Source of the DNA: a virus
Lineage: Duplodnaviria; Heunggongvirae; Uroviricota; Caudoviricetes
DNA length: 34,744 nt
Strand: one strand, 5' to 3'
IMG/VR virus record: IMGVR_UViG_2574180160_000007
The translations under genes were made by a program, and so were the position numbers. Each line of letters opens with the position of its first letter. Within the stretch, counting starts at the first letter, position 1. Below, one piece after another: positions 2,318 through 4,000 of this stretch. The notes beneath the pieces are model-generated. The model had not been told where the DNA came from. It saw nothing but the letters and a program-made list of their open reading frames with translations, and made no database searches.

Positions 2318-2525
2318 ACCGCAGCACGTTCCTGCATACGACGTGTCTGCGGCATAATCCCAATGATTACTCCCTGACAGGGTTTGCAGGCCACTCAATA
2401 TCAGGTGCAGTTGATGTATCAACACGATTCAACAATACCCGATATTTATTCCATGCCTCCAGCAACGATCTTTCTTCCTCCGTTGCGATTTCCAGATCTA
2501 CAGCATCCTGCAGTGGCGCAATATA
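2318..2525. repeat. Direct repeat copy A: 3' end of tfa plus about 50 bp downstream (pairs with 3366-3574)
   Basis: Nearly identical stretch ...ACCGCAGCACGTTC.TGC.TA.GACGTG.CTGCGGCATAATCCCAATGATTACTCCCTGACAGGGTT... and the coding region for ...[47 protein letters not shown] occur twice in the same orientation. Confidence 0.7.
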
Positions 2526-2636
2526 CTCACTGAATTCCTGGATGTAGAACTGTGTGGTGACGGTCTTCCAGCCATTCGGCTCCTGCTGTATCGAAGCATA
2601 CCAGGCTATTTCAATATCGCTATGCTGCGGCAGCAT
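2367..2636 (-). CDS. Chimeric 89-aa ORF: unrelated N-terminus fused to the C-terminal about 52 aa of tail fibre assembly protein (Tfa remnant)
   Basis: C-terminal half is near-identical to the C-terminus of the full-length Tfa at 3416..4000; N-terminal 37 aa differ. Confidence 0.5.
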
Positions 2637-2704
2637 TTAACCCCTTGTAATTCATCGCCATAATTGATTTAATTCACAAATAAAACTATAACATGGTGAA
2701 ATCA

Positions 2705-3361
2705 ATGAAAAAAAACACAGATGATGGGGCTAAAATTTACACACCACTTACCCTAAAGCTTTATGACTGGTGGGTTTTGGGAGTATCAAATCGGCTTGCA
2801 TGGGGATGTCCTACAAAGGAACACCTTCTTCCACACTTTCTGGAACATGTAGGTAACAACCATCTGGATATTGGTGTTGGAACTGGGTTTTACCTTACTC
2901 ACGTACCTGAGAGTAGTCTGATATCTTTAATGGATTTGAACGAAGCTAGCCTGAACGCGGCATCTACAAGGGCTGGGGAATCAAAAATTAAACATAAAAT
3001 TAGCCATGATGTTTTTGAACCTTATCCCGCGGCGTTACATGGTCAATTTGATTCCATTTCCATGTTTTACCTTCTTCACTGCCTGCCTGGAAATATATCT
3101 ACAAAAAGCTGTGTAATACGCAATGCGGCGCAGGCCTTAACTGACGATGGAACTCTATACGGAGCCACAATTCTTGGCGATGGAGTTGTGCACAATAGCT
3201 TCGGTCAAAAACTGATGCGCATTTACAATCAGAAAGGCATCTTTTCAAACACAAAAGATTCCGAAGAAGGCTTAACACATATACTCTCAGAGCATTTCGA
3301 GAATGTTAAAACCAAGGTTCAAGGTACTGTAGTAATGTTTTCCGCTTCAGGGAAAAAATAG
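2705..3361 (+). CDS. Class I SAM-dependent methyltransferase-like protein (moron; alternative start 2693)
   Basis: Motif I hh-D-h-GxGxG (LDIGVGTGFYL), acidic post-I residue (LMDLNEA), motif II-like FDSISMFYLLHCLPG; opposite strand to the late operon; AT-rich relative to flanking phage genes; GGTGA Shine-Dalgarno before the ATG at 2705. Confidence 0.6.
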   Translation: MKKNTDDGAKIYTPLTLKLYDWWVLGVSNRLAWGCPTKEHLLPHFLEHVGNNHLDIGVGTGFYLTHVPESSLISLMDLNEASLNAASTRAGESKIKHKISHDVFEPYPAALHGQFDSISMFYLLHCLPGNISTKSCVIRNAAQALTDDGTLYGATILGDGVVHNSFGQKLMRIYNQKGIFSNTKDSEEGLTHILSEHFENVKTKVQGTVVMFSASGKK

Positions 3362-3365
3362 CATC

Positions 3366-3574
3366 CAACCGCAGCACGTTCTTGCTTAAGACGTGCTGCG
3401 GCATAATCCCAATGATTACTCCCTGACAGGGTTCGTAGGCCACTCAATATCAGGTGCAGTTGATGTATCAACACGGTTCAGCAACACCCGATACTTTTTC
3501 CAGGCTTCCAGCAATGAGGTTTCTTCCTCCGTTGCAATTTCCAGATCTGCAGCATCCTGAAGCGGCGCAATATG
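3366..3574. repeat. Direct repeat copy B: 3' end of intact tfa plus downstream hairpin region
   Basis: See copy A (2318-2525). Confidence 0.7.
3369..3401. terminator. Inverted repeat (about 11-13 bp stem) between the convergent methyltransferase and tfa genes; probable bidirectional terminator
   Basis: CCGCAGCACGTTC..GAACGTGCTGCGG-like palindrome 8 nt after the methyltransferase stop and about 15 nt after the tfa stop; a degenerate copy lies at about 2322-2358. Confidence 0.4.
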
Positions 3575-4000
3575 CTCACTGGCTACCTGCATCAGGTTGT
3601 TTTTTGTTTCTTCCGCCTCCCGGATCCGGAACAGTTTTTCTGCTTCCGTATCCTTCACCCAGGCTGTGCCGTTCCACTTCTGAAACTCCCCTTCCGGCGA
3701 TAACCAGGTAACATTTTCCGGTAACGGACCGAGTTCAGAAATAAATAACGCGTCGCCGGAAGCCACGTCATAAACCGTTTTACCCCGATGATCTTCAACG
3801 AGATGCCACGATGACTCATCACTGTTGAAAACAGCCACGAAGCCAGCCGGAATATCTGGCGGTGCAATATCGGTACTGTTTGCTGGCAGACCTGTATGAG
3901 GCGGAATATATGCATCACCTTCACCAATAAATTCATTAGTTCCGGCCAGCAGATTATAAATTTTTATGGTCCGTGGTTGTTCACTCATTCTGAATGCCAT
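3416..4000 (-). CDS. tfa: Tail fibre assembly protein (Tfa)
   Basis: 194-aa protein immediately downstream of stf with a 1-nt stop/start overlap; conserved C-terminus ...[32 protein letters not shown] typical of lambdoid Tfa. Confidence 0.9.

Follow-up and report, generated by a model that had tools for sequence, protein, structure and literature searches.

The stretch of DNA analysed here (34,744 nucleotides; IMG/VR virus record IMGVR_UViG_2574180160_000007, hereafter the window) corresponds to the yciGFE-ompW region of E. coli, with a lambdoid prophage inserted in ompW. The genes are arranged in the order yciG, yciF, yciE and the 3' remnant of ompW, followed by the late end of the prophage, in which a DUF4376 gene remnant, a chimeric tfa fragment (tfa'), a methyltransferase gene, tfa, stf, lom and gpJ succeed one another (Table 1). 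The methyltransferase gene thus sits between the intact tfa and tfa', both of which are read from the opposite strand. An ORF at 2082-2363 matches PHROG 1141 (tail fibre) and PHROG 7703. The corresponding region of E. coli 042 has the same arrangement, is 99.4% identical to the window and is annotated to match.

Table 1. Features of the ompW end of the prophage and of its methyltransferase cassette, in window coordinates
Feature	Position	Strand	Basis or remark
ompW 3' remnant, integration target and chromosomal boundary	~1653..1778	-	RefSeq annotation of E. coli 042, coordinate transfer
DUF4376 tail-fibre gene remnant (pseudogene), stub of an older tail-fibre module	~2001..2270	-	PGAP annotation, E. 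coli 042
Distal direct repeat: hairpin (stem 2319-2352) and tfa 3' end	2317..2543	.	Repeat search, alignment, folding
Chimeric tfa' ORF (TfaX-like), 89 aa	2367..2636	-	Unrelated N-terminal ~26 aa and Tfa C-terminal domain
Sigma-70 promoter-like element TTGATT-17-TATAAC	2664..2692	+	Read from sequence; upstream of the methyltransferase gene, in the tfa'/methyltransferase spacer
Predicted YbcY-family class I SAM-dependent methyltransferase, 218 aa	2705..3361	+	A8 run at 2708-2715
Proximal direct repeat: hairpin (stem 3369-3401) between convergent stop codons, and functional tfa 3' end	3367..3592	.	
tfa, intact tail fibre assembly gene, 194 aa	3416..4000	-	Caudo_TAP E=2e-44; PHROG 105 E=1e-100
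stf, side tail fibre, 933 aa, last large late-operon gene	4000..6801	-	phage_tail_N, Phage_fiber_2 and Collar domains
lom	6953-7552		
gpJ	7620-11093		

The segment can be identified as the ybcY cassette known from lambdoid prophages, a conserved, self-contained accessory gene that is common in E. coli. Positions 2390-3854 align without interruption to tfaX-ybcY-tfaD of the K-12 prophage DLP12 (97% over 1465 bp), and the two loci share a tfa gene, a convergent methyltransferase gene, a divergent tfa fragment and the same promoter hexamers. In DLP12, however, ybcY (b0562) is a pseudogene whose ATG is missing its G and whose A8 run, just after it, is one A short, so that both start codon and frame are lost. 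DLP12 is itself a decayed prophage at a different site, with appY-ompT next in order, whereas in the window the gene is intact and its prophage, integrated in ompW, has a complete late region. Of 5426 complete E. coli genomes, 3836 contain the methyltransferase DNA, in as many as four copies per genome. The full-length gene also occurs in 14 phage records, which include the lambda-like 2G7b and ev243 as well as phages grown on ECOR13, E. coli C or K-12. In 2G7b the tail fibre is followed by the methyltransferase, tfa fragments, an alpha/beta hydrolase, ompT and int. Since 70 of the 80 IMG/VR prophage loci with the gene have both tfa-3' repeats (see below), with the proximal copy 6 nt past the stop codon, the bracket belongs to the module.

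The cassette is already catalogued, as ybcY/tfaX in K-12, as a “class I SAM-dependent methyltransferase” by PGAP and as PHROG 2132, and its layout is the usual one for accessory genes of phages. The initial annotation had proposed the gene as a candidate for an undescribed function. As far as the function is concerned this stands, a literature search on ybcY, b0562 and WP_000239881 having returned no functional study, but the gene itself is not novel, being catalogued and very common. The same annotation had suggested a comparison with YmfD of the e14 element; a relationship to it can be rejected (BLASTP E=15), the K-12 counterpart being DLP12 ybcY. YmfD is likewise annotated as a putative SAM-dependent methyltransferase of ~220 aa in a K-12 cryptic prophage; it differs in having no detectable sequence similarity to the window protein and in its prophage position next to int/lit.

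A repeat search and pairwise alignment placed the direct repeats that bracket the gene at 2317-2345/3367-3395 (90% identical) and 2347-2543/3396-3592 (89%), the two blocks being offset by a 1-bp indel. The repeat unit is thus ~227 bp long and ~89% identical overall, with copies ~1050 bp apart, and a pair of such length and identity inside 2.6 kb is far beyond chance. Each copy consists of a strong hairpin followed by the last ~177 bp of a tfa reading frame, as the initial annotation had described. The proximal hairpin (-23.9 and -28.5 kcal/mol on the two strands, z -5.9 and -5.0) begins 8 nt past the methyltransferase stop codon, has no U-tract and was not called by a terminator scan; the distal hairpin folds at -18.8 and -24.1 kcal/mol. 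The chimeric nature ascribed to tfa' is also evident, its match to Caudo_TAP being confined to residues 31-86 (E=6e-25) and its last 63 residues being 81% identical to the Tfa C-terminus, with an unrelated N-terminus. It corresponds over its full length to PHROG 2341 (E=4e-61) and is collinear with K-12 tfaX.

The product expected from recombination between the repeats was built in silico and then searched for in genomes. Among the matches listed, 12 genomes hold this product as one unbroken match at the ompW site with the same flanks, and these empty-site prophages, for the rest nearly identical, have an intact stf-tfa pair and no methyltransferase. The filled ompW-prophage context was found in ~365 genomes, and the counts (380 versus 365) imply ~15 empty alleles. 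Empty alleles are without exactly the repeat-bounded ~1050 bp and retain one hybrid repeat, which answers the question, raised initially, of how related prophages with and without the insert compare. Where the two window copies differ, the empty alleles have distal-type bases in the flank and hairpin and proximal-type bases in tfa, with the switch between them falling at 2346-2385 in one strain and at 2387-2427, with some mosaic sites, in five others. Polymorphism boundaries at more than one point within the repeats fit homologous recombination between tfa 3' ends. Such recombination therefore moves the cassette in or out, the repeat-mediated polymorphism being all but certain; loss is the likelier direction, as empty alleles are rare.

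The cassette shares several properties with the phage morons (10.1101/2024.10.15.618418) such as lambda lom and bor and those of HK97-type phages: it is a single accessory gene among essential genes, it has its own promoter-like element, a flanking hairpin and a deviant base composition, and it is present in some close relatives and absent from others, as in the empty-site sisters (GC 0.42 versus 0.50). It differs from these morons in being gained or lost via a ~227-bp duplication of the 3' end of a neighbouring gene.

The methyltransferase gene was noted at the outset as AT-rich and convergent to the late operon, and both properties hold, GC being 0.41-0.43 across the gene versus ~0.50 in the adjacent tail genes and the gene lying on the plus strand versus the minus strand for tfa. 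PGAP calls a longer form from an upstream ATG (2693-3361, 222 aa); homologues use the next ATG, at 2705, which has GGTGA just upstream (2695-2699). The encoded protein scores 37.5 bits against Methyltransf_12 (Pfam gathering score 30) and likewise exceeds the Pfam cut-off for Methyltransf_23, _25 and _11. Motif I, LDIGVGTG (58-65 in the 222-aa numbering), and D81 are invariant in 34 homologues, in agreement with the class I assignment made initially. Further signatures set the family apart, namely an N-terminal helix YDWWVL..SN..AW.C.T, FDSIS.FYLLHCLPG and a C-terminal GATILG..V.HN.FG..LM..YN.KGIFSN..D, and PHROG 2132 matches over 218/218 positions (E=4e-157). Among the invariant residues, Y24, W26, W27, H129, C130, H167 and N168 are predicted to line the pocket. 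The alternating beta/alpha fold agrees with solved class I enzymes, and the protein has no TM segment. Judged on these motifs, profiles and fold, it is predicted to be a soluble SAM-dependent methyltransferase of class I (Rossmann fold), belonging to a subfamily that is distinct and widely spread.

In accord with the earlier reading, the protein has neither [DNS]PP[YFWH] nor a PC dipeptide and matches no DNA-methyltransferase Pfam family; on the strength of these missing motifs and the Pfam result, a DNA methyltransferase was rejected. A profile search of PDB sequences gave JHAMT (6e-6) and UbiG (6e-4), PmtA (8ys9) showed a resemblance at the level of fold only, and Foldseek against a viral library returned generic methyltransferases only. 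The best fold and profile matches are methyltransferases of the UbiE/Coq5/PmtA/JHAMT type, with which the protein shares the Rossmann core, an N-terminal helical lid and a similar size; it differs from them in that identity is only 12-21% and the YbcY family has its own signature. Three NCBIfam equivalogs that were considered score far under cut-off (PmtA 15.7 versus 390, RquA 16.9 versus 175 and CpaM 18 versus 180 bits).

Upstream of the gene, the hexamers of the promoter-like element are identical to those assigned to ybcY in the K-12 ybcY/tfaX spacer by genomic SELEX with RpoD holoenzyme, where the same site was flagged as an H-NS target and RNAP-sigma70 bound in vitro (PMC3946193). A consensus promoter scan of the window chose a weaker upstream candidate instead (TTAACC-16-CATAAT, 2637-2664). 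The gene and the late operon converge, so late transcripts running past the hairpin would be antisense to the methyltransferase.

Taken together, we favour an interpretation, to which we give a probability of roughly 0.75, in which the cassette encodes an autonomous, probably H-NS-dampened accessory methyltransferase that acts on a host small molecule or lipid and moves via tfa 3' ends. According to this interpretation, the gene is a single-gene accessory unit (moron) placed in the variable stretch that separates the tail-fibre genes from the end of the prophage, and would be transcribed in the lysogen from its own promoter, probably at a low, H-NS-limited level, with the strong hairpin separating it from the tfa stop codon. 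The soluble enzyme would methylate a low-molecular-weight or lipid host substrate (O-, N-, C- or S-methylation) and may thereby equip the lysogen with a self-sufficient trait, for instance detoxification or the modification of a metabolite or of the envelope, probably acting on neither DNA nor the virion. The cassette would travel among lambdoid phages and be lost by recombination in the conserved tfa 3' ends. Within this picture the identity of the cassette and the repeat-mediated polymorphism are nearly certain; the least secure element is the class of substrate.

The substrate might instead be RNA, with the enzyme modifying host translation components as a tRNA or rRNA methyltransferase. 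We consider this unlikely, the best sequence and fold matches being small-molecule or lipid enzymes and the 218-aa protein consisting of a single domain that has no RNA-binding extension, has a pI of 7.2 and matches no NCBIfam RNA-methyltransferase model.

Relatives of the protein are widespread beyond E. coli. An exhaustive profile search recovered 415 clusters (50% identity) at E<1e-30, and the clusters looked up include members from Acidobacteria, Flavobacteria and lichen-forming fungi. The relatives occur on the chromosomes of Salmonella, Enterobacter and Yersinia, flanked by transposases in Aeromonas and Salmonella, between int and the tail-fibre genes of a Salmonella prophage at mutS, and in an E. 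albertii island together with OspG-like kinases and a cdtA-like gene. On plasmids, 603 Klebsiella records carry a relative, which in the pLVPK-like plasmid examined lies ~540 bp from rmpA and is divergently transcribed; a relative on Erwinia amylovora pEA29 is convergent to a choline transporter, and a distant one in the vap island of Rhodococcus equi, pVAPA_0470, adjoins virR. The methyltransferase stands alone and monocistronic in every context examined, with no recurring operon partner in 13 homologue contexts, which were drawn from Salmonella, Yersinia, Aeromonas, Enterobacter, Klebsiella, E. albertii, Citrobacter, Acidobacteria and Flavobacteria and from Klebsiella, Erwinia and R. equi plasmids. 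The neighbours comprise scattered redox/detoxification-type genes and the one choline transporter, a pattern too weak for use. Longer homologues have no extra Pfam domain except for one fungal RCC1 fusion, which is uninformative.

Two of these relatives are found in virulence loci. The Klebsiella pneumoniae virulence-plasmid protein (BAH65943.1 / WP_011251259.1) belongs to the same family at 64-66% identity over its full length, and R. equi pVAPA_0470 at ~32%, also full length. Like the E. coli gene, both are single uncharacterised genes in horizontally acquired loci; they differ in being plasmid-borne and having no tfa repeats, and the R. equi protein in its degenerate motif I (GARSA for GVGTG). 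The Klebsiella gene is listed as a liver-abscess/hypervirulence-associated marker and the R. equi gene is conserved in all three island types, with no function reported for either in these sources (PMC5126061, PMC9372168, PMC5434932). It is tempting to speculate, at odds that we put low, that YbcY-family enzymes act across mobile virulence loci as a common factor for host interaction or stress, methylating an envelope lipid or head group or inactivating a toxic small molecule and so altering the surface or resistance of the lysogen. The relatives on which this speculation draws are those in E. coli prophages by ompT and lom and those associated with Klebsiella rmpA, R. equi vap and pEA29, a virulence-locus pattern that may partly reflect which genomes get sequenced. 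Candidate targets would be, for example, phosphatidylethanolamine or a phosphoethanolamine- or choline-type amine, and a toxin could be derived from the host or from a competitor.

Defence-type cargo is common in the tail-fibre-to-att slot of temperate phages. The gene occupies this accessory slot and is a single autonomous gene with presence/absence polymorphism, so that a role in anti-phage defence or counter-defence, for example by methylating a signalling molecule or a phage or host component against superinfection, could be envisaged, as it had been in the initial annotation. We found no support for such a role and regard it as distinctly improbable: a search of PADLOC-DB 2.0 gave just a non-significant match to mad2 (E=0.009, 12.9 bits), a partner effector gene is absent, and homologues are fixed chromosomal genes or lie on virulence plasmids without phage context.

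That the gene is a decaying, functionless passenger, trapped between the tail-fibre stubs left by successive module replacements, would be in keeping with the surrounding remnants (tfa' and DUF4376), with the K-12 pseudogene and with the H-NS flag on its promoter region (PMC3946193). This is very hard to reconcile with the conservation of the gene. Its dN/dS is 0.17-0.22 versus the Citrobacter and Salmonella orthologues, ~60 residues are invariant across the 34 homologues at 56-90% identity, the 100%-identity cluster comprises 6589 member sequences, and the family is kept in many genera and in fungi. At this dN/dS the methyltransferase gene is under purifying selection. The constant adjacency to tfa sequences might suggest a tail-fibre accessory gene acting on Stf or Tfa, a notion with next to no probability in view of the orientation opposite to the late operon, the homologues without tail genes nearby and the intact stf and tfa kept by sister prophages without the gene.

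The cassette itself is therefore ordinary prophage anatomy that is in the K-12 reference annotation already. Its interest is biochemical and lies in the substrate of an intact, selected methyltransferase carried by ~70% of sequenced E. coli. As K-12 is without a functional copy, the standard model strain could not have shown a phenotype. Close relatives serve as markers for hypervirulent Klebsiella, and the virulence island of R. equi has conserved a more distant one. In addition, the locus provides a clean natural example of a conserved tfa 3' end serving as a homology arm that shuffles cargo at the lambdoid tail-fibre end. Rfam recorded no RNA element in the unique segment of the cassette, the sole nearby match, IS009, lying within the tfa coding sequence. 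The same module is found in O157:H7, with a yciGFE-catalase block inserted past the hairpin.

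A DUF4376 tail-fibre pseudogene stub lies in the very AT-rich DNA (GC 0.35 at 1651-2100) that separates the distal direct repeat from the ompW remnant (window 1781-2316). Its presence suggests that tail-fibre modules have been replaced repeatedly, leaving their 3' stubs behind. A prophage of E. coli O157:H7 FRIK2455 (L014) carries paralogues of yciG, yciF and yciE together with a manganese catalase gene, and the window has its chromosomal yciGFE outside the prophage (see table). Together these two placements would fit capture of the neighboring stress operon when a prophage integrated in ompW once excised imprecisely.

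Immediately 3' of the methyltransferase start codon lies an A8 homopolymer (window 2708-2715), and at this same position the K-12 ybcY pseudogene is missing one A as well as the G of its ATG. The tract could serve as a slippage-prone on/off site. Members of the methyltransferase family were also located on plasmids of Klebsiella pneumoniae, Rhodococcus equi and Erwinia amylovora (loci L119, L121 and L120). The R. equi protein may be unable to bind SAM, because its GxGxG motif has been lost and is replaced by GARSA.

Features of the window and of the comparison loci
Feature	Location	Strand	Context
Chromosomal yciGFE	window 252-1593		just beyond prophage end at ompW
Hypothetical protein WP_001309429.1, 45 aa	window 3306-3443	-	PGAP annotation of matching E. 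coli 042 region
NanS-p-like esterase (DUF1737+SASA+DUF6645)	window 30987-32858	-	late regulatory/lysis region
STnc100 sRNA	window 33465-33654	-	late regulatory/lysis region
tRNA-Arg(tct)	window 34351-34427	-	late regulatory/lysis region
DUF1327, lysozyme, Rz, HNH	within window 27505-34427	-	late regulatory/lysis region; adjoining terminase
yciG, yciF, yciE paralogues and manganese catalase	L014 6220-8433		inserted between methyltransferase hairpin and tfa
Klebsiella family member	L119 (pFRPDR_1) 5823-7648		divergent to rmpA
R. equi family member	L121 (pVAPA1643) 5839-7717		divergent to virR, vap island
Erwinia family member	L120 (pEA29) 6001-8980		convergent to choline transporter

In the late regulatory and lysis region (window 27505-34427, minus strand), no stx-sized ORF was seen, and the gene layout is as typical for Stx phages.

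An Rfam scan matched IS009 (RF02111) at full length on the minus strand of window 3459-3657 (225 bits, E=2e-55), wholly within the tfa coding sequence and overlapping the proximal direct repeat. Phage-associated structured RNA hits in a 2026 preprint include IS009; what the family models may be tfa coding sequence, not an sRNA in its own right. The 45-aa ORF WP_001309429.1 is probably an annotation artefact; it overlaps the 3' end of the methyltransferase gene as well as the hairpin and the stop codon of tfa.
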